Origin: a virus
Virus record (IMG/VR): IMGVR_UViG_3300022555_000009
Length of the DNA stretch: 64,000 nt
Strand: one strand, 5' to 3'
Part shown: piece by piece, positions 4,699-49,102 of the stretch
Numbering within the stretch: the first letter of the stretch is position 1
Layout: every line of letters begins with the position of its first letter
Notes under the pieces: generated by a model
The model's input: the letters and a program-made list of their open reading frames with translations, nothing else
Told to the model about the DNA's origin: nothing
Database searches by the model: none
Program-made: the position numbers and the translations under genes

Positions 4699-5886
4699 TT
4701 ATCCAACGAGTTTTGCTAGATAGATTTCGAGATTACCAGCCTTAATATGAATTGCTTTCTTATCCATATCTGCTCTCAACTCCGCGGTTGTCTCCTTCTT
4801 TATCTTCCCTAAGAATTGCTTCAAAGAAGAATTAATAACGGTAACTTCGAAGTTATCAGAGTCCATTATCACAGATAACTCCCTATCAATTGAGCAAGAG
4901 CCTCCTCTCACACCAGAATCCTTTAAAAGAACTTTTAGTGTCTCCTTGTTACTCTTGTCGTATGCTAGAATAATAGGATCTAAATCTAAGGAAGAAGAAT
5001 AGAACCCGCTGAAGAAATTACTCGTGTCTCTCAGCGCGTTTACATTTATATCACATATCTTTTTCTTAGGGTATATAGCTTTGAGGTCATCTTCTGCAGG
5101 CGGCGCCACATTAGACATTGCGTTATTAAAAACACATTTCATTACGCTAGTTTCCAGGTAGGCTTTATTTCTATTTTCAAACACTATGAAATTTACCACT
5201 AAGCCACTTGAGAAGGCCTGCACAAAAACCCTCGCGATCTTTTTATGCAGAGGAATGTACTCCTTTTTAAGGACTCCTGTCTCCAAGCCCCCATAAATGT
5301 ATACGTGGGTTCTGTCATTAACAATAATCTTATCTCCGTATATACTAAGAGCATTATTCTTCTTTTCGTCAGAAGATATAAAAGGGAGGCAGGAACCAAT
5401 AGCCTCCCCGAACTCAGCCGAATTCTTTATGCTCACTAGGGACAGATCATAATTTTTGACTTTCATACTGTCTACTAACTGATCATGCAACTCTGAGATT
5501 TCAAAGAGTTGGCTGTCCTCCATAAGAATATGGGGGAGTGAAAGTTTATCCTTACCTACCTTAATATCGAAAGTCGAGTTGTCTCCATCTTGAGTTACTG
5601 CAATAGTCATTAGAGCGAGGTCATCGACTAGATAGCTATGCAGAATGTAAAAGAACTTTTGAGACTCGAGACGAATTCCTACGGGAGTCTTAAAGTCCTC
5701 AACCTCGCAGGGAATATCAAGTTCCACATATGCAGTCGAGTCCTTAACGACTAAGGTAACTGTCTTCTCATTTTGAATCCACAGGTTTAAGTTGAGAATA
5801 TCTGCTGCGTCGAATTCGAACCCACTTAGGATTTTTTCGTGATCAAACAGACCTTTAAAATCTATATTCTTTATCCTTAGGTTCAT
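4699..5886 (-). CDS. DNA polymerase sliding clamp (DnaN/beta-like)
   Basis: 395 aa with repeated alpha/beta pattern; N-terminal 'VTLVVKD..YVELDIPCEV...IRLESQKFFYIL' and C-terminal 'FEVTVINSSLKQFL...ELR...AIHI...IYLAKL' resemble the beta-clamp; replication context. Confidence 0.55.
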   Translation of the reverse strand: MNLRIKNIDFKGLFDHEKILSGFEFDAADILNLNLWIQNEKTVTLVVKDSTAYVELDIPCEVEDFKTPVGIRLESQKFFYILHSYLVDDLALMTIAVTQDGDNSTFDIKVGKDKLSLPHILMEDSQLFEISELHDQLVDSMKVKNYDLSLVSIKNSAEFGEAIGSCLPFISSDEKKNNALSIYGDKIIVNDRTHVYIYGGLETGVLKKEYIPLHKKIARVFVQAFSSGLVVNFIVFENRNKAYLETSVMKCVFNNAMSNVAPPAEDDLKAIYPKKKICDINVNALRDTSNFFSGFYSSSLDLDPIILAYDKSNKETLKVLLKDSGVRGGSCSIDRELSVIMDSDNFEVTVINSSLKQFLGKIKKETTAELRADMDKKAIHIKAGNLEIYLAKLVG

Positions 5887-5989
5887 TTGTGCTCCTTCAT
5901 TAAATGAATATATGAGTTAATACCGTTTTTTATTGCCACGACTCCTAGGACCTATCTTATATTATTTGTGAACTATAAAAGGGGAATAC

Positions 5990-6601
5990 ATGCTAGAATA
6001 TGATGTCGTGATGAAGTGCAAAGAAGGTCATAAGCCCTCTCTTCAGGCCCTATATTTTAAGTACATACCATTTATCAACAAACACTACTACAAGATGCAG
6101 AAGCAATTCTACTTCAAAATTCCCATGGAGCGAGAGGACTTCGAGGTCGAGGGGTATGCAGCTTTGGTCAAGGCTATCGAGTATGTGGACCCTGATAAGA
6201 TTACCGATAAGGAGAAGTGGCTTTTTATCGGTGTGTTCGGTTACTACCTTAACATGCTACGTAAGTCCTGTGTCATGTCATATATGCATCAGCAGGCAAA
6301 TGAAACTCCTCTTTATGTCAAGTCCAGGAGCAGCAGCGACGAGTACTGTGTAGCAGATAATTACGCGGAAAATGAAAGTCGAGATATGACCAGGGGCATT
6401 GAGGAGGAGACTTTCATAGATCAGTTTAGATCTAATCTGAATGACTTTGAGAGACTAATTCTTAGTAAGCGTTTGGAAATTAGGGAAGAGGGCAAGCCTC
6501 GATCACTGCAGTCTATAGCTGGTGAGCTCGGGTGCTCTTTTTCTAAAATTCAGTCCGCAAATAAAAGAATCGAGACTATCTATAGAACTATGAGGGAATA
6601 A
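5990..6601 (+). CDS. Sigma-70 family RNA polymerase sigma factor
   Basis: Region 2 (LYFKYIPFI...EREDFEVEGYAALVKAIE..DP) and region 4 HTH (LNDFERLIL...RSLQSIAGELGCSFSKIQ). Confidence 0.8.
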   Translation: MLEYDVVMKCKEGHKPSLQALYFKYIPFINKHYYKMQKQFYFKIPMEREDFEVEGYAALVKAIEYVDPDKITDKEKWLFIGVFGYYLNMLRKSCVMSYMHQQANETPLYVKSRSSSDEYCVADNYAENESRDMTRGIEEETFIDQFRSNLNDFERLILSKRLEIREEGKPRSLQSIAGELGCSFSKIQSANKRIETIYRTMRE

Positions 6602-7261
6602 ATGGAATGGGCGAAGAAAGTAAACCAGCTACTGGAGAAAAGATCAAAGGGATTCTTAAGATCGCAAAAACCGCCGCTGACTTCATTGGTAAGATCAAAG
6701 AATTGCCTCGTATTATTCATGCTATTATTCTTGCCGTTGCTTGCTTGGGCGCAGGCGGTGCCAGTGCCGTCTACGTTACCGAAAGAAGTGCTGATACAGA
6801 AGTTAAACGAATGCAATCAACAATTGCAAGTCTCGATAAGTCAATTGCAGACCTCCAAGCAAACAATCGACAGCTTATTGCTGACAAAGACGGACTTGTT
6901 GCAACAAATAAGTCTCTTGCAACAGAATCAGATAAACAAAGACAAACAATTACAACTCTTACAACAGAGCTTGGACAGCAGCACGGCATTATTGACCTCC
7001 TTACAGCAGAGTCAAAACGAAACCAACAAATTATTAGCGACCTTGCAGCAGCAGGAAGACAGTTTGACGAAGGACTTGGATCAGCAGGTACTGATATACA
7101 ATCAACTATTAAAAGACTCCAACTTACTCAAAGTACAATTGCAAAGCTTATCGCTCAAATTAACAGCTCTCGAATTCAGTAATAAAGTAAAAGATTATGT
7201 TCTTGTGGGTAGTGGCGTTGCTATAGTACTAGAGACCGTATATATTATACTTAGGAAGTGA
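6602..7261 (+). CDS. Signal-peptide/coiled-coil/C-terminal TM protein (spanin-like); fully overlaps the next ORF
   Basis: Hydrophobic LVLFMLLFLPLLAWA-QA (SPase I-like site), long Q/L heptad coil, C-terminal TM YVLVGSGVAIVLETVYIIL-RK. Confidence 0.6.
   Translation: MEWAKKVNQLLEKRSKGFLRSQKPPLTSLVRSKNCLVLFMLLFLPLLAWAQAVPVPSTLPKEVLIQKLNECNQQLQVSISQLQTSKQTIDSLLLTKTDLLQQISLLQQNQINKDKQLQLLQQSLDSSTALLTSLQQSQNETNKLLATLQQQEDSLTKDLDQQVLIYNQLLKDSNLLKVQLQSLSLKLTALEFSNKVKDYVLVGSGVAIVLETVYIILRK
6607..7182 (+). CDS. N-terminal membrane anchor plus coiled-coil protein (i-spanin-like), nested in an alternate frame
   Basis: IIHAIILAVACLGAGGASAVYV anchor followed by ~130 aa heptad coil; SD GAGGGA 9 nt upstream. 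Confidence 0.6.
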   Translation: MGEESKPATGEKIKGILKIAKTAADFIGKIKELPRIIHAIILAVACLGAGGASAVYVTERSADTEVKRMQSTIASLDKSIADLQANNRQLIADKDGLVATNKSLATESDKQRQTITTLTTELGQQHGIIDLLTAESKRNQQIISDLAAAGRQFDEGLGSAGTDIQSTIKRLQLTQSTIAKLIAQINSSRIQ

Positions 7262-7327
7262 ACTACCCTGAAACTAAAAAAGATTTCGAGGTTTTCTTGC
7301 GATGAAAAGTATAAATAGGAGAATACA

Positions 7328-7507
7328 ATGGATGCAGTTTCTAGTTTTAAAATGTGGATTGCTGAACAATTAGAGGAAGGCTCCCTTGTCACTTCCTGGG
7401 ATGAAAGCTTAATGGGCCTTGGCGAGGAGTATATGGTTGATGAAAGTGAAATGGATGCCGTGATACAATTCGCCGCTAGGTTGGCTCAGAGTCTTCGGCG
7501 AAAGTAA
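7328..7507 (+). CDS. Small acidic hypothetical protein (59 aa)
   Basis: Manual ORF MDAVSSFKMWIAEQLEEG...; SD AGGAG; stop sits 1 nt before the next gene. Confidence 0.65.
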   Translation: MDAVSSFKMWIAEQLEEGSLVTSWDESLMGLGEEYMVDESEMDAVIQFAARLAQSLRRK

Positions 7508-7508
7508 G

Positions 7509-8054
7509 ATGACTATTCTAATCGAAGGTGTTCCAGAGGATGCTCTAGTAACAGCTACCAGGGCTCACTCTGGACAATTTAGAAGAGGAGGCGCTCCTTA
7601 CATATCTCACCCCGCACGAGTTGCTCAGCATGTACAACGTGTGAAAGGCGACTCTCATAAAGCTGATGACTTAATAGCTGCGGCCTATCTTCACGACACC
7701 CTCGAAGATACAGATATGACCGAAAAGCAGATTCTCGATCAATTTGGTCCTAACGTCCTTAATCTCGTATTTGAATTGACTTCCGATGAGGAAGAGCTGA
7801 AACGGCTAGGTAAAACTGCATATTTACAAAAGAAGTTTTCGGGTATCAGTAGCTGGGCTTTAGTTATCAAATTGAGTGATCGCTTAGATAATGTGTCGGA
7901 TCTTCTTGACGCTGATTACGACTGGGCTCTGAAGTATGCCAAGCAAACCCAAGACATACTAATTTACTTGATCGAGCATAGAAAACTAACGAGCACACAA
8001 AAAAGATTAGTAGGAGAGATACAGGAGATTTTAGACGAATTTTATAAGAAATAA
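7509..8054 (+). CDS. Stand-alone RelA/SpoT-type HD hydrolase (small alarmone hydrolase, Mesh1-like)
   Basis: AHSGQFR..G.PYISHP, AAYLHDTLEDT, ELT, IKLSDRLDN motifs. Confidence 0.9.
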   Translation: MTILIEGVPEDALVTATRAHSGQFRRGGAPYISHPARVAQHVQRVKGDSHKADDLIAAAYLHDTLEDTDMTEKQILDQFGPNVLNLVFELTSDEEELKRLGKTAYLQKKFSGISSWALVIKLSDRLDNVSDLLDADYDWALKYAKQTQDILIYLIEHRKLTSTQKRLVGEIQEILDEFYKK

Positions 8055-9436: not shown

Positions 9437-9700
9437 ATGATGGCAATTACACTACACGACTGGAAGACTATTCGAGAACTGAGACTATGTACTGCTGCTG
9501 GTTTATTAAATCCCATGGAATTCAAGATACTGCTAGCTCCTATGGTTTTTTTGGATCAAGGAGACGCGGGCGATGATGAAGAGGATAGTATTGCTGACGA
9601 CCTACGACAAATAAAAAAGAATAAAAAAAGCTCCTCTGAAAAAGAGGAGCTTCCACCTGCTATAGGCTTTCATGTAGACTCAGAGGAAGAGGACGACTAA
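9437..9700 (+). CDS. Hypothetical acidic protein
   Basis: SD AAGGAG; ACTAATT at 9399. Confidence 0.6.
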   Translation: MMAITLHDWKTIRELRLCTAAGLLNPMEFKILLAPMVFLDQGDAGDDEEDSIADDLRQIKKNKKSSSEKEELPPAIGFHVDSEEEDD

Positions 9701-11289
9701 CATTTTGACCATCCACACATACACGTGACACATCCCTCTTTATACATAAAGCCATCTTTACTACCACAAGAGGGACATTCCATAGATGTCTTTACTTGCT
9801 CGCCGTTCTTGATGTATCCTTTAAGAACTCTCGCTAAGGATTTTGACCAGGAACCGAAACCATCGCTTTTACCTAGCTGTTCAACGATGAACTCGATAGG
9901 TGTTCCGTGCCTCAGAGCTGTACTCAGTAGACGCGTTGGTCCTTCGTACTCGTGATTGAATGTTTGGGCAATATTCTCAATTACGACCTTATCTACTCCG
10001 TTAGGAATAATGAGGTCGTAATTGCCTTTGCCCTTCTTACGAATGATACCTGTGTCTTTATCCTTTAGATAACTCCATTCTTCTCTTTGTTCAGATATGA
10101 ATGTCTCATATATGGATCCGCTGTACTTGCCGATTAGAGTTAGAAACTTTTGTCCCTTAATAGAAGTGACATAAATATCACACTCCAAGTCCTTAGGTCT
10201 TTTTGGCGCACCAGACCTCTCAATGTACTCAGGTCTCTTATAGCATACTTCTTTCTTCACTGGCTTAGTAGATAATATTCCCTTCATACTTCCCTGTGGA
10301 TTAAATGAAGTGAATCCTTTTAAGCCTTGCTTATAAGCAAACATGAAAAGATCTTTATAGGCCTCCAAAGTATATCCTTCGGGTAGGTTAGCTGTCTTAG
10401 ATATAGAGTGATCTATGTATTTTTGAAAAGCAGCCTGTACTCTTACCCCATCATAAGGATTCACTTCATTTGAAGTTATGAAGTACTCGGGAATTTTAGG
10501 TTCAAGCCCCGTCGATGTCATATGTGCTTTTGTATCATCGTAAGGGGTGTGAAGATATTCTAGCCAGGCCTTATCATACACAGTTTCTTTACGAGTCTCG
10601 TCTCCTTTTCCCGTCCTGATAGTTCTATCATACTGGAGAGCAAAGATGGGCTCAATACCTGAAGAGCAATTATTACCAACTGTCAATGAAATTGTTCCTG
10701 TTGGCGCACAAGTTAATATACCTATGTTCCTTAGACCACTTGCCCATATATCTTCATATAATTCCTCGGGGAGTGAGGTAATAAAAGAAGACTGATTAAG
10801 TCTTTTATCAAATGCAGGAAAGGTACCCTTTTCTCTCGCTAACTCAGCAGATTCACTGTATGCTTCGTCACGGAGTATTCTACCTATTCCGTCTGCAAGA
10901 TCTATACTTTCTTGGCTACCGTATTTTATTTTCATCATGGCACAGACGTCACCAAAACCCGTGAAGCCTAGTCCTATCCGCCTCCACTGTTTGGAAAAAT
11001 CTTCTATCCTCTTAAGAGGATATTTAGTTACATCTAAAACGTCATCAAGAAATCTAACTGCTGTGCGAATAGTTTTCGATAGAAGATCCTGATTAATCAT
11101 CGGGGAATCTCCAAAAGCCCCTGTCACAAAGGAAGGTAGGTTTAAGGATCCTAGACAGCATAAACTATATGCTGGCATCGAAATTTCGCCACAATTTTTA
11201 ATAACAGTGCCATTTGCATAAAAATTATGAGTATTCTCCACTGTTATATCATATACATCTTCGTTATCAGATGTTTCTATAATTAGCAT
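9697..11289 (-). CDS. nrdJ: Class II (B12) ribonucleotide reductase, C-terminal part, preceded by a 32-aa split-intein IntC (11194-11289)
   Basis: DVYDITVENTHNFYANGTVIKN|CGEI; CCLGSLNL, RRIGLG, APTGTIS, SSGIEP, SISKT; C-terminal CPSC...EGCVTCMCGWSKC. Confidence 0.93.
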   Translation of the reverse strand: MLIIETSDNEDVYDITVENTHNFYANGTVIKNCGEISMPAYSLCCLGSLNLPSFVTGAFGDSPMINQDLLSKTIRTAVRFLDDVLDVTKYPLKRIEDFSKQWRRIGLGFTGFGDVCAMMKIKYGSQESIDLADGIGRILRDEAYSESAELAREKGTFPAFDKRLNQSSFITSLPEELYEDIWASGLRNIGILTCAPTGTISLTVGNNCSSGIEPIFALQYDRTIRTGKGDETRKETVYDKAWLEYLHTPYDDTKAHMTSTGLEPKIPEYFITSNEVNPYDGVRVQAAFQKYIDHSISKTANLPEGYTLEAYKDLFMFAYKQGLKGFTSFNPQGSMKGILSTKPVKKEVCYKRPEYIERSGAPKRPKDLECDIYVTSIKGQKFLTLIGKYSGSIYETFISEQREEWSYLKDKDTGIIRKKGKGNYDLIIPNGVDKVVIENIAQTFNHEYEGPTRLLSTALRHGTPIEFIVEQLGKSDGFGSWSKSLARVLKGYIKNGEQVKTSMECPSCGSKDGFMYKEGCVTCMCGWSKC

Positions 11290-11316
11290 TTTTAAACGTC
11301 TCCTCTGTTAATTCCT

Positions 11317-12423
11317 CTAGTCATGGATTAACTCATCAGTTGGTTGAAGGTGCTGTGCTTCTACCCATCCTCTATTTTTTGTAAGTATTTTGTGATCCGG
11401 AGTACATTTGATCTGATTGCCAGTGGAGGTATCTGTTATCCTGATTATTTTCGTATTTTTTCTAGTGAGAAGAGCATTTGTTACTTTTTGGTATTCAGTT
11501 TGACGAGTCTCTTCGTTGAGAGACTTCGCAAATACTTCTTCCCCAGAAACTACCAATTCTACTAAGTCCTTCATTCTTATTTTTTGATTTACGCCCTTGA
11601 AAGAAATATCTACAACGGTATCTCCTGTTACGCAAGGATTGACCGAATCTATATTAAAGGCGTACCAGCCGTTGTTATACCTATTTACTGTATCAATATT
11701 AAAGATGCCTGGTTCATTGTGCTCGAAGGCATTCTTGGCCAGGAGATCATAAAGATACTTAGCTTTAACTATTTTATAAACTTGCCCTTCCCAAACAAGA
11801 GGCCATTCACTATCTTCTTCTACAGCCCTGATAAATTCGTCTGTGAGAACTACAGAGAGGTTGAATTGGTCTAAAGCTTTTTTCTCGTCTCCGTGTTTTA
11901 CTGTAATGAACTCTTCGATGTCAGGGTGATCTATGTTCATCAGAGCAATATGAGCAGATCGACGACCTCCTCCAGTCTGTATGACTTTTGCAGACTCGTT
12001 GAATATTTTAAGGAAAGAAATAGGCCCGGATGACTTGCCTCCCTTTTTAATAGCAGCATCTTTAGGTCTCAAGTACGAAATATTAAAGCCAACGCCTCCC
12101 CCTGAAGCACTGATCATGGCATCATCGTGGAGAGCTCCGAAAATGCCCTCCATGCTATCTCCAACAGCTATAGTATAACAATTATTATAGTACTTCATTT
12201 TAGAATCCGGACGAGCATTAGCTAGGATTCTTCCACCGGGGATAAATAAGCCTTTTTCCATAATGTCAAGAAATTCGTGTTCCCACTGAGCTCTTACTTT
12301 CGGTTTTTCAGCCATCGCTATTTCAGTCGCAACACCCCTAAATACATCCTCAGGGGTTTTTTCGCCGTTAATCATATACTTCTGGCGAAAGATTTCTTCG
12401 GAGATAGATTGAGAGAACATCAT
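11317..12423 (-). CDS. nrdJ: Class II ribonucleotide reductase, N-terminal part, ending in a 105-aa split-intein IntN (11320-11634)
   Basis: FIPGGRILAN, NNCY, GGGVG, LRP, GGGRRSA, HPDIEEFI, EPG; VNP|CVTGDT...CTPDHKILTKNRGWVEAQHL. Confidence 0.93.
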   Translation of the reverse strand: MMFSQSISEEIFRQKYMINGEKTPEDVFRGVATEIAMAEKPKVRAQWEHEFLDIMEKGLFIPGGRILANARPDSKMKYYNNCYTIAVGDSMEGIFGALHDDAMISASGGGVGFNISYLRPKDAAIKKGGKSSGPISFLKIFNESAKVIQTGGGRRSAHIALMNIDHPDIEEFITVKHGDEKKALDQFNLSVVLTDEFIRAVEEDSEWPLVWEGQVYKIVKAKYLYDLLAKNAFEHNEPGIFNIDTVNRYNNGWYAFNIDSVNPCVTGDTVVDISFKGVNQKIRMKDLVELVVSGEEVFAKSLNEETRQTEYQKVTNALLTRKNTKIIRITDTSTGNQIKCTPDHKILTKNRGWVEAQHLQPTDELIHD

Positions 12424-13125: not shown

Positions 13126-13186
13126 GATTTTCTCCTTTTTATAATATAGCTAAACCTCTCACTAATTATGGTGAGGGACAAAAATA

Positions 13187-47089: not shown

Positions 47090-47788
47090 TTGGATTTTAT
47101 AGGCCTCACCTTTTTTATACCTTCCACCTTGTTAGTTATATGGGGAACCTTTATAGCTACCAAGTATTACCTGTCGGAGAAGACGCGATTTGAAGACTAT
47201 TATCTTCTCCTGGCGATAGCGAGTTTTTTTGGCAAATTTTTACTGCAATCTTTCATCCTAGTAACTAATAATTTAAGTCCCAGCCTCGTTTTCATGGTCC
47301 AGGCTTTACAAACTTGGACCTATTGGTTTTTGTTGATCTTCCTATTCAAAAGAAATTTTTTCGAAGCCAAATTAAAAAGAGTCTTATGGATTCTTTTGAC
47401 CTTGATTATAGTGATAGGTAGCACCATCCTCATAGCCAGCAGTTCTTTCCAAATAGATCCCGTCGTATACGTAGCGAAGTATCCAACTCTAATGAAGATG
47501 GACTATCTCTTAGATGATAGCTTTGTTAATACAACTCAGTACTTAAGAGTATTCATGCTAGGCCTTTGCGTGTGGTTCTCTTGGAGACTACTGAAAAAGC
47601 CATCCTGGATGTTTTTCGGCGCCTCCTTTCTTTTTCTAGTTGAACTTTTTACATTCTATAATAATCTACCCTGGAAATTTCTTCCTTCATGCTTTATATT
47701 CAGAATAATCCAAGTATTTGAATTAATTTCTATCATATGCATATCTTTAGATATGAAGTTATATTTTGGTAAAAGAGATTCTAAATGA
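47090..47788 (+). CDS. Polytopic membrane protein (~7 TM)
   Basis: About seven hydrophobic segments; ACTAATT plus SD GAGG with TTG start. Confidence 0.65.
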   Translation: MDFIGLTFFIPSTLLVIWGTFIATKYYLSEKTRFEDYYLLLAIASFFGKFLLQSFILVTNNLSPSLVFMVQALQTWTYWFLLIFLFKRNFFEAKLKRVLWILLTLIIVIGSTILIASSSFQIDPVVYVAKYPTLMKMDYLLDDSFVNTTQYLRVFMLGLCVWFSWRLLKKPSWMFFGASFLFLVELFTFYNNLPWKFLPSCFIFRIIQVFELISIICISLDMKLYFGKRDSK

Positions 47789-48813
47789 CTGAAGCTCCTG
47801 CTAGTGCAGTAACGCCTGCTGTCGTGTCTTTATTACACGACATAATCAGCAAACCTTTTTGGGAATCCGCTGTGCTGATAGTCCTAGCAGGTCTTGTGAC
47901 ATTTTTTGTTGTAGGCGGTCTTGCGTTCGCCCTATCGCGAATTCGAGGGGAGGTAGATATAGATTTCTTATCTTTGTTCCGTATAGGTAAGAAAAGAGAA
48001 GAACTAACTTCTAGAAATGATATCAATATCGTAGTAAATAATACCCCACCCTCAACTTCCGCTGAATTCGTTAAAGAGGAGAATAAGCTTTTGAATGAAA
48101 TGATAGGGGCAGAAGACATGGTTGAAAAAGATGAGATTATCGCGGAGAAAACTCCTGGTGATCCCGATAACGTCTTGCTTATGGTTATTAGCAAGAGCGT
48201 TAGATTCGGATCGGATATCTCCAAATACAAAGAAGTGTACTTAATAAAATCTCAGATGGCTGCTGCGGAGTTGAGGTCGAATATTATTGAAAATATTCTT
48301 ATAAAAGATTACATGGAGGTAATATATAAGAAAAATTCAAAAATCAACATTCAAGATGACCAGTCCTATCGAATCTTTGAAGAGATAGTCCATAACCAGG
48401 CCCATAGAAATATCTTAGCAGTCTTGCGTAGATTGTTCAAAGACAATCATTTAACTCAATACGACGAAGAAGGCTTCAATGAGTACTCAAGTGTACAATG
48501 CGAAAGAATAATAACGCAAATGAAGTTATCTATAAATGGGTCTATTCCTAGTTTTCTTGATCCGGGTCGAGAAGCAGTAAATATAATCCTTGATCGCTCG
48601 AATCAAGCGCTCTTAGAAACCTTCAAAGATATTTTTTCTGAAGCCCGTGTTTTAGCTTTCAGAACAGAGTCAGTTATACGTAAAAAAGAAAAAGACTTCG
48701 ACGATGAGATAAAGAAGCTCACGGGAATTTCAGAAGCTCATAAAAGGGCTGATATCGCTTCTGAAGATCCCTATGCTATAAACTATAAAACAAGGGAATT
48801 AAAATATGAGTGA
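47785..48813 (+). CDS. N-terminal TM protein with a large helical soluble domain (possible holin/antiholin partner)
   Basis: TM SAVLIVLAGLVTFFVVGGLAFAL; ATGA coupling. Confidence 0.5.
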   Translation: MTEAPASAVTPAVVSLLHDIISKPFWESAVLIVLAGLVTFFVVGGLAFALSRIRGEVDIDFLSLFRIGKKREELTSRNDINIVVNNTPPSTSAEFVKEENKLLNEMIGAEDMVEKDEIIAEKTPGDPDNVLLMVISKSVRFGSDISKYKEVYLIKSQMAAAELRSNIIENILIKDYMEVIYKKNSKINIQDDQSYRIFEEIVHNQAHRNILAVLRRLFKDNHLTQYDEEGFNEYSSVQCERIITQMKLSINGSIPSFLDPGREAVNIILDRSNQALLETFKDIFSEARVLAFRTESVIRKKEKDFDDEIKKLTGISEAHKRADIASEDPYAINYKTRELKYE

Positions 48814-49102
48814 TACTACTGTAGTAAATACAAGCGTTACTGTAAATACAAAGCCTTTGGGATTCTTTAGAGACCCCTCAGGAGACTTGAGTTCAGGAAG
48901 GCTTGTAAAGATAGGCTCTTTTTTCGCAGCCATTGTTATTGGCTTAGCAGGATTAGGTGTATTAAGTTACGCCGCAATCTATCCTGCGGCAACAGTTAAC
49001 GCAGCCTTGACACCACTTTCCAGCTACTGCTTAGGAATTGCTGGAATGTTTTTAGGCGTCGCCGGCGGATCTGAGATCGTACAGAAAGTTACTAAAAGTT
49101 AA
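48806..49102 (+). CDS. Putative holin (2 TM)
   Basis: 98 aa; FFRDPSGDLSSGRL followed by two TM segments and a basic tail. Confidence 0.5.
   Translation: MSDTTVVNTSVTVNTKPLGFFRDPSGDLSSGRLVKIGSFFAAIVIGLAGLGVLSYAAIYPAATVNAALTPLSSYCLGIAGMFLGVAGGSEIVQKVTKS

Follow-up and report, generated by a model that had tools for sequence, protein, structure and literature searches.

Can one initiation region feed two long membrane proteins that are read in different frames from the same DNA, and what would a phage use such a pair for? The question is raised by IMG/VR virus record IMGVR_UViG_3300022555_000009, a myovirus from lake water, of which we analysed 64 kb (hereafter the window, in whose positions all coordinates are given) out of a genome of ~170 kb. 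Two open reading frames (ORFs) on the plus strand overlap there almost completely: ORF A (6607..7182, 191 aa) and ORF B (6602..7261, 219 aa, +1 relative to A), which covers all of A plus 79 nt further. An earlier note, made from the letters alone, had read them as coiled-coil membrane proteins with a shared start and as an atypical pair of spanins, the proteins that break the outer membrane at lysis. Judged from the reading frames, their homologues and their substitution patterns, the dual-coding gene pair is almost certainly genuine.

Initiation region and dual coding

On inspection, positions 6592-6609 read GAGGGA-A-TAA-ATG-GA-ATG, exactly the layout claimed before, with ORF starts at 6602 and 6607. 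The Shine-Dalgarno (SD) sequence GAGGGA (6592..6597, + strand) is common to A and B; the A ATG stands at the ideal spacing of 9 nt from it, the B ATG at only 4 nt. The TAA (6599-6601) ends an upstream sigma-70-like gene (5990..6601, + strand; TIGR02937, E 2e-7; phrog_351) and abuts the B ATG (TAAATG). We found no notable sigma-70-like promoter between this gene and the pair, and no terminator-like site anywhere in 5800-7600. Because no terminator-like site intervenes, co-transcription of the sigma-like gene with the pair and translational coupling to B are likely. From its start context, B may be translated partly via termination-reinitiation. A single mRNA with one SD would yield two proteins from starts 5 nt apart in different frames.

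The same start region recurs at all nine related loci, where a single purine-rich SD is followed by two starts 2-7 nt apart in different frames. The B ATG comes first, with the A ATG 5 nt on, in the window, L001 and L009, and the A ATG comes first, with the B ATG 7 nt on, in L004 and L005. The arrangement is ATGTGG, with B at ATG and A at GTG 2 nt on, in L006, L007, L008, L010 and L012.

Both frames are open throughout. The shared span of 573 nt in the window contains no stop in the A frame and none in the B frame, against 16 in the third frame. Conservation of both frames in homologues had been set beforehand as a check, and it gave the same picture: at nine loci neither frame has a stop across 399-576 shared nt, while the third frame has 8-23. 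To gauge this, we recoded each protein in 1500 simulated trials, with codon frequencies taken from the long ORFs of the window (14,915 codons). Recoding protein A put on average 16 stops into the B frame, which was open in 0/1500 trials; recoding protein B put on average 13.6 into the A frame, again open in none of the 1500. Over the four window-clade homologues, which are 52-62% identical, the expectation for the partner frame is 12-19 stops and 0 are seen. The partner frame closes upon recoding because the coil of A avoids codons that are common in the phage at large. Its Leu codons are only CTT and CTC and 12 of its 14 Ile codons are ATT, whereas phage-wide TTA makes up 29% of Leu, ATA 38% of Ile and GTA 36% of Val.

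Substitutions tell of constraint in the same region. Pairwise differences in the coil at A codon positions 1, 2 and 3 are 0.29-0.33, 0.18-0.22 and 0.23-0.29, respectively, so that no position is free; in the N-terminal part of A (first 35 codons) the third position differs by 0.47-0.65. At sites where the residue is identical, the codon is also identical in 80-88% of cases for A and 65-76% for B. Within-gene synonymous shuffling leads one to expect ~48% and ~40%, which lies 5-8 standard deviations below the observed values. OLGenie-style site classes (dNN 0.18, dSN 0.35, dNS 0.75) yield an omega_A of 0.52 and an omega_B of 0.25, significant in two independent pairs at p 3e-4 for A and p 3e-14 for B. 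In the tail of B, which is coded singly, third-position differences reach 0.62-0.67, and GTA, ATA and CTA codons are no longer avoided. These alignment patterns show synonymous sites to be constrained and both frames to be under purifying selection throughout this deep phage family.

Close relatives of A are few. Only three turned up, at 52-58% identity, in 5.8 billion proteins and in 241 million records from metagenomes: P0003 (L001, the same as L002 and L003), P0002 (L004) and the protein of L005. Each has an open +1 frame that begins <=7 nt from the A start, and in L001 and L005, where the contig allows, this frame passes the A stop into a conserved hydrophobic tail. A profile built from four B proteins was then used in an exhaustive hidden Markov model search of 1.84 billion representatives. 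It matched nine proteins (best E 9e-23, P0004), eight of which form the family set (P0004-P0010 and the fragment P0012); the ninth, P0011 (802 aa), was left out. Window B also finds P0004 by BLASTP (E 2e-19), and gene finders had picked out the B family proteins of these distant metagenomic phages independently. By such homology B is a real protein family.

Conversely, the A frame is open for ~135-156 codons in L006, L007, L008, L009, L010 and L012, with the third frame closed, and it encodes an N-terminal transmembrane (TM) helix and a coil homologous to A (window A against L006, BLASTP E 3e-17). Every locus examined has B in the +1 frame of A. Because the A frame is open and A-homologous in the distant B loci, dual coding is, as far as homology can tell, family-wide, down to ~30% identity. 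Homologues and selection together bear out the claim that both frames encode real, conserved coiled-coil membrane proteins behind one initiation region. Gene callers pick up only A in one clade and only B in the others; as just one gene is reported per locus, the family is half-invisible in databases. With the B profile, a word-based search gave no match in the set of 5.8 billion proteins. Among the isolated phages of INPHARED (50,697 genomes) there was no DNA or protein match for the locus, A, B, P0004 or P0007. No relatives were found in IMG/VR with A, alignment A1 or alignment A7, and no prophage copies in GTDB genomes with alignment A8 or P0008. Among sequencing runs, the stretch is listed only for DNA runs from lakes and freshwater, possibly its own source, and for no RNA run.

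The clades also differ in length by 28 residues (four heptads, 84 nt). Compared with P0004-P0008, the window clade has an insertion of this size at window ~6900-6985, and since it occupies one and the same position in the two frames, both coils are lengthened together, by ~4 nm. The window clade further carries ~30 added residues at the N-termini of both proteins; the extension of B is poorly conserved, yet always strongly basic (+7 to +10). At the other end, A terminates in a double stop, TAATAA (7178-7183), lying within the Ser-Asn-Lys codons of a conserved B motif, L-E-[FL]-S-N-K, whose conservation may partly serve the termination of A.

In lambda, Rz1, a gene of 60 residues, is embedded in the +1 frame. 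The overlap described here is ~3 times the length of the Rz1 gene and is among the longest and deepest same-strand overlaps in double-stranded DNA phages known to us.

Anatomy of the two proteins

AlphaFold2 models A and B as single long helices (pLDDT 85-97), and all of the membrane segments claimed for them are present. The N-terminus of A is amphipathic and leads to a TM helix (residues 36-58; 6712..6780, + strand, from hydropathy) and then to one helix of ~128 residues. It would be a type II inner-membrane protein with a cytoplasmic N-terminus, one TM segment and a periplasmic alpha-helix. The hydrophobic segment, 21-23 residues with basic flanks, is kept in nine family members, the N-in topology being read from charge distribution only; the same DNA also encodes the core of the B signal peptide. 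Within the TM region Ala-Cys-x-Gly-Ala-Gly is invariant in the four clade members. A lipobox-like AVA-C that had been noticed in this protein did not hold up. Its Cys46 lies in the middle of the TM helix and the PROSITE-type lipoprotein pattern fails in the three other clade members; we rejected A as a lipoprotein. The periplasmic helix (residues 62-189, pLDDT 93-97) has unbroken heptads and is continuous, in contrast to Rz, which has two coils and a linker.

Family searches link A weakly to Rz. phrog_739, the main PHROG of Rz-like inner-membrane spanins (i-spanins), is matched by 6/9 A proteins, phrog_89 by 4/9 and phrog_312 by 1/9. All three are annotated as Rz-like spanin, and the matches are weak (E 1.8e-5 to 1e-2). 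On the best explanation A would be a remote relative of the Rz-type i-spanins. In Pfam and NCBIfam, A and B have only sub-threshold coiled-coil matches (DUF3450, SMC, CENP-F, Cbp1), the sole lysis family being TIGR03495 (phage_LysB), with a single match at E 0.065. ESM Atlas look-alikes of A all score <0.9 and serve as leads only: hypothetical proteins of viruses reach 0.83-0.85, and a cluster named 'Rz lytic protein' reaches 0.75. A precomputed match of P0001 to PF28422 was set aside as probable noise; the neighbouring entry PF28420 is a eukaryotic coiled-coil family.

B runs from its basic N-terminal extension through a Sec-type signal and a Pro-rich linker to a helix of ~138 residues and a C-terminal TM helix. 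The hydrophobic core and c-region of the signal (residues 35-50; 6704..6751, + strand) contain the A-W-A/Q-A sequence noted earlier, with a predicted signal peptidase I site after A-W-A, and 4/4 clade members retain [AV]-W-[AG] at -3/-1. B would be exported by the Sec route, its signal peptide having the look of one that signal peptidase I can cleave. Mature B has ~169 residues, of which only the ~10 after the signal are Pro-rich. In the AlphaFold2 model a disordered Pro-rich segment leads into a single helix (60-218) that runs on into the TM tail. The TM helix (residues 199-217; 7196..7252, + strand), followed by Arg-Lys, is coded in B only, after the TAATAA of A, and would hold B in the inner membrane. 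This tail and its G-E-T-x-Y motif are kept in L001, L005, P0004, P0005 and P0012. A Cys at residue 71 (6812..6814, + strand), in the motif L-x-x-C-x-Q-Q-L, is invariant in the four-sequence alignment A4 and aligned in 8/10 family sequences; in P0004 and P0008 a Cys lies a few columns off. With only P0008 counted as shifted, the Cys is conserved in 9/10 aligned B proteins. The periplasmic helix of B would carry this conserved Cys and the Pro-rich segment at its distal tip.

Complete distant B proteins follow the same plan: a short signal, here at the extreme N-terminus, a Pro/Ser-rich stretch, a Cys-containing coiled coil, a C-terminal TM helix and a basic end. Most have L-x-x-C-x-Q-Q-L, together with L-K-L-x-A-L-E-L-x-N-K and often G-E-T-x-Y in the TM helix. 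P0009 is an exception to the plan with its A-type N-terminus, which is due to an indel in L011. L011:4960-5560 encodes a chimera that begins with an A-type N-terminus and TM helix and goes on with a coil and TM tail of B type; an indel of one base exchanges the frames, and neither is closed afterwards. Because the naming of the contig suggests a long-read assembly, the indel is probably an assembly error. If it is real, P0009 would represent a naturally fused protein that bears TM helices at both ends.

Neither a PROSITE-type nor a strict lipobox was found in the B proteins of the window, L001, L004, L005, L006 and L007, while a lipoprotein pattern is present in L008 (C30), L009 (C25) and L010 (C15). 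Against PHROGs, B proteins give scattered tape-measure, SbcC and coiled-coil noise and no similarity to a spanin family. The partner of A is not, as the earlier note had rightly remarked, a short Pro-rich lipoprotein; B is long, helical and TM-ended. The opposite anchoring proposed for the two proteins is true along the sequence, N-terminal in A and C-terminal in B, but not across the envelope: in the window clade both anchors are predicted to lie in the inner membrane, with no outer-membrane tether visible.

The two coils share their DNA in register. In the dual-coded coiled-coil region (6790..7173, + strand; A 62-189, B 64-191) the heptads are unbroken and in the same phase, both proteins having their hydrophobic residues where index mod 7 = 3 and 6. 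Of 31 core residues of A, 24 share their DNA with a hydrophobic residue of B (Fisher p 4e-9). What recurs is the tetranucleotide NTT+R, which A reads as CTT or ATT (Leu or Ile) and B as TTG or TTA (Leu); one unit thus serves the hydrophobic core of two coiled coils, and gene birth by overprinting is directly visible in it. If extended, both helices are ~19-21 nm long, the width of a periplasm. The two proteins could assemble into a coiled-coil complex that crosses the periplasm. A complex prediction for A(58-191) with B(52-197) scored 0.11, and we draw nothing from this score.

A possible spanin function and its alternatives

What, then, is the pair for? Both products are probably envelope proteins tied to the lysis programme, and from sequence features we put the chances at even that they are a spanin. 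Such a spanin would be a two-component variant in which the +1 partner is full length and has the topology of a unimolecular spanin (u-spanin). The A-B complex would disrupt the outer membrane in the final step of lysis, once holin and endolysin have acted, and in some relatives a B with a lipoprotein signal could bridge both membranes alone.

Gene order in relatives argues for this role. Immediately ahead of the pair, L001/L002, L006, L007, L009 (two genes), L011 and L012 have small holin-like genes with several TM segments. A YkuD-domain protein is encoded in the L009 cluster (26.2 bits, Pfam cut-off 23.4), and on a 7.4-kb contig a Peptidase_M23 gene is found two genes downstream of the pair.

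Compared with known systems, the pair shares features with two types. A survey of 677 phage genomes, in 91 of which no spanin was found, distinguished embedded, overlapped and separated two-component spanins and beta-rich, Cys-free u-spanins, a lipoprotein signal being required in all (PMC6139136). Like the two-component spanins lambda Rz/Rz1 and P2 LysB/LysC (PMC6139136), the pair has one partner whose periplasmic coiled coil lies behind an N-terminal TM helix, and a second gene in the +1 frame, which runs past the stop of A as in P2. It likewise has a periplasmic Cys, typical of two-component spanins (PMC6139136), in one partner, here B, and in relatives it often comes last behind holin-like genes. 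A fits an i-spanin by topology, coil and +1-frame partner. Unlike in those systems, however, the overlap is nearly total, 573 nt beginning 5 nt from the partner start, and both products come from a single ribosome-binding site. B is also unlike an outer-membrane spanin (o-spanin), which is short, Pro-rich and largely unstructured, being 219 aa long, helical, heptad-patterned and TM-ended, with no lipobox in the window. Its plan of N-terminal export signal, periplasmic domain and C-terminal TM helix is that of u-spanins such as T1 gp11, and to this the lipoprotein patterns of L008, L009 and L010 can be added; the A-W-A of the window recalls the AWAC lipobox of PB1-type u-spanins (PMC6139136). 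B differs from u-spanins in that the window clade lacks a lipoylated Cys, the protein is helical instead of beta-rich, Cys71 is conserved (none of 58 u-spanins carries a periplasmic Cys; PMC6139136) and an i-spanin-like partner is always co-encoded.

We found no published description of such a pair. A gene in the o-spanin position with u-spanin topology that still overlaps an i-spanin-like gene raises the possibility of a third spanin class, a living intermediate between two-component and unimolecular spanins. The +1 partner would already have the C-terminal anchor of a u-spanin, with a lipid anchor carried in some lineages and dispensed with in others. The origin of u-spanins from an extended o-spanin has been left as speculation (PMC6139136), and we offer the intermediate tentatively, as possible but doubtful. 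If true, it would mean a route of outer-membrane disruption that needs no lipoprotein.

Analogies outside the spanins are looser. SNAREs and class I viral fusion proteins share with the pair, in function only, long heptad helices that end in a membrane anchor, and the zippering or collapse of coils that draws two membranes together is also the model proposed for Rz/Rz1. They have no homology to A or B, and a SNARE-like fusion mechanism for it would be pure inference. Overprinted genes on one strand, for example in small viruses, resemble the pair in their +0/+1 frames, in suppressed synonymous variation and in the stronger constraint on one frame, here B. The pair differs in belonging to a large double-stranded DNA phage with no obvious pressure on genome size, and in that A and B are of the same fold type, share the nucleotides of their hydrophobic cores and are kept to ~30% identity.

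Several points weigh against a spanin function. The inner-to-outer-membrane bridge that defines spanins is not visible in the window clade, as window B is without a lipobox and neither protein has a recognisable outer-membrane anchor. The spanin-like label of the earlier note survives in the Rz-like character of A, the +1 frame of B and the holin-like genes ahead of the pair in relatives, but not in a tether to the outer membrane. The only Cys of A, C46, lies within the TM helix, and A has no periplasmic Cys. The PHROG matches of A are weak and could owe much to TM and coiled-coil composition. The window pair stands outside a lysis cassette, after the sigma-like gene and before a 59-aa ORF and genes for an HD-phosphohydrolase and Hsp20. 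A diderm host envelope is assumed. A canonical spanin may lie elsewhere in the ~170-kb genome, beyond the window, in which a six-frame scan for a canonical small lipoprotein ORF gave only antisense or out-of-frame junk.

In one alternative the pair is dual-coded but forms another envelope module of the late or lysis programme, such as a holin regulator, a periplasmic sensor of lysis timing, or a superinfection-exclusion or inner-membrane tethering complex. Both anchors are predicted in the inner membrane, window B has no outer-membrane signal, the window locus sits beside regulatory and stress genes instead of lysis genes, and the PHROG matches are weak. The context of relatives varies as well, the upstream neighbour being a Zn-ribbon protein in L008, a Gly-rich 573-aa protein in L010 and a soluble 95-aa protein in L005. 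However, six loci have holin-like genes directly upstream, A matches Rz-like families consistently and nothing else, the B signal is of lipobox type in three relatives and the helix length fits the width of the periplasm. We consider a non-spanin module rather unlikely.

B might instead be the effector alone, a helical unimolecular spanin, with A an accessory or regulatory protein overprinted on the coiled-coil gene of B. That B is the more constrained of the two (omega_B 0.25 against omega_A 0.52) agrees with this, but A is open and conserved at 11/11 loci, those with a lipobox in B included. Five distant loci start B at ATG and A only at GTG, and NTT+R codon pairs make an out-of-frame heptad almost automatic; yet it is A, not B, that resembles known spanin families. 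The u-spanin topology of B and the lipobox at three loci have to be set against the 6/10 B proteins without one, and against the 58 known u-spanins, which are beta-rich and include none with a periplasmic Cys (PMC6139136). An effector role for B alone is improbable. Least of all survives the idea that only one frame is translated and the other is open as a by-product of coiled-coil residue and codon composition: a heptad repeat of NTT codons does give a Leu-rich, stop-poor +1 frame, B is of low complexity and rich in Leu and Gln, and gene finders never called it in the window clade, but the 12-19 stops expected against 0 in nine loci with 8-23 in the third frame, the synonymous constraint in both frames, the conserved TM helix of B past A and the homology of A-type and B-type proteins each between clades at ~30% identity make it very improbable.

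Other features of the window

The earlier note had suggested that an ACTAATT at 6454 could drive late expression of the pair. The motif is present at 6454-6460, but this copy is intragenic, inside the sigma-like ORF, and the 20 copies in the window (16.2 +/- 4.3 expected; among them those at 13161, 18378, 25220, 28136, 47061, 49122 and 51094) are not above chance; we rejected it as a promoter for the pair. Many copies do lie just upstream of gene starts and point into them.

A 98-aa holin-like protein with two TM segments is encoded at 48806..49102 (+ strand), 42 kb from the pair. Its homologue in L007 (BLASTP E 3e-8) immediately precedes the pair, so the phage has an L007-type holin-like partner, though 42 kb off. 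The gene closes a cluster in which it is preceded by genes for a multi-TM protein (47090-47788) and for a protein of 342 aa that has a hydrophobic N-terminal segment (47785-48813).

On the minus strand the large subunit of ribonucleotide reductase is apparently split into two adjacent ORFs (9697-12423). ORF 11317-12423 corresponds to positions 204-494 of phrog_84 and ORF 9697-11289 to positions 488-973. The C-terminal ~85 residues of the former match unrelated helicase and head-protein PHROGs and may be the remnant of an intein or homing element.

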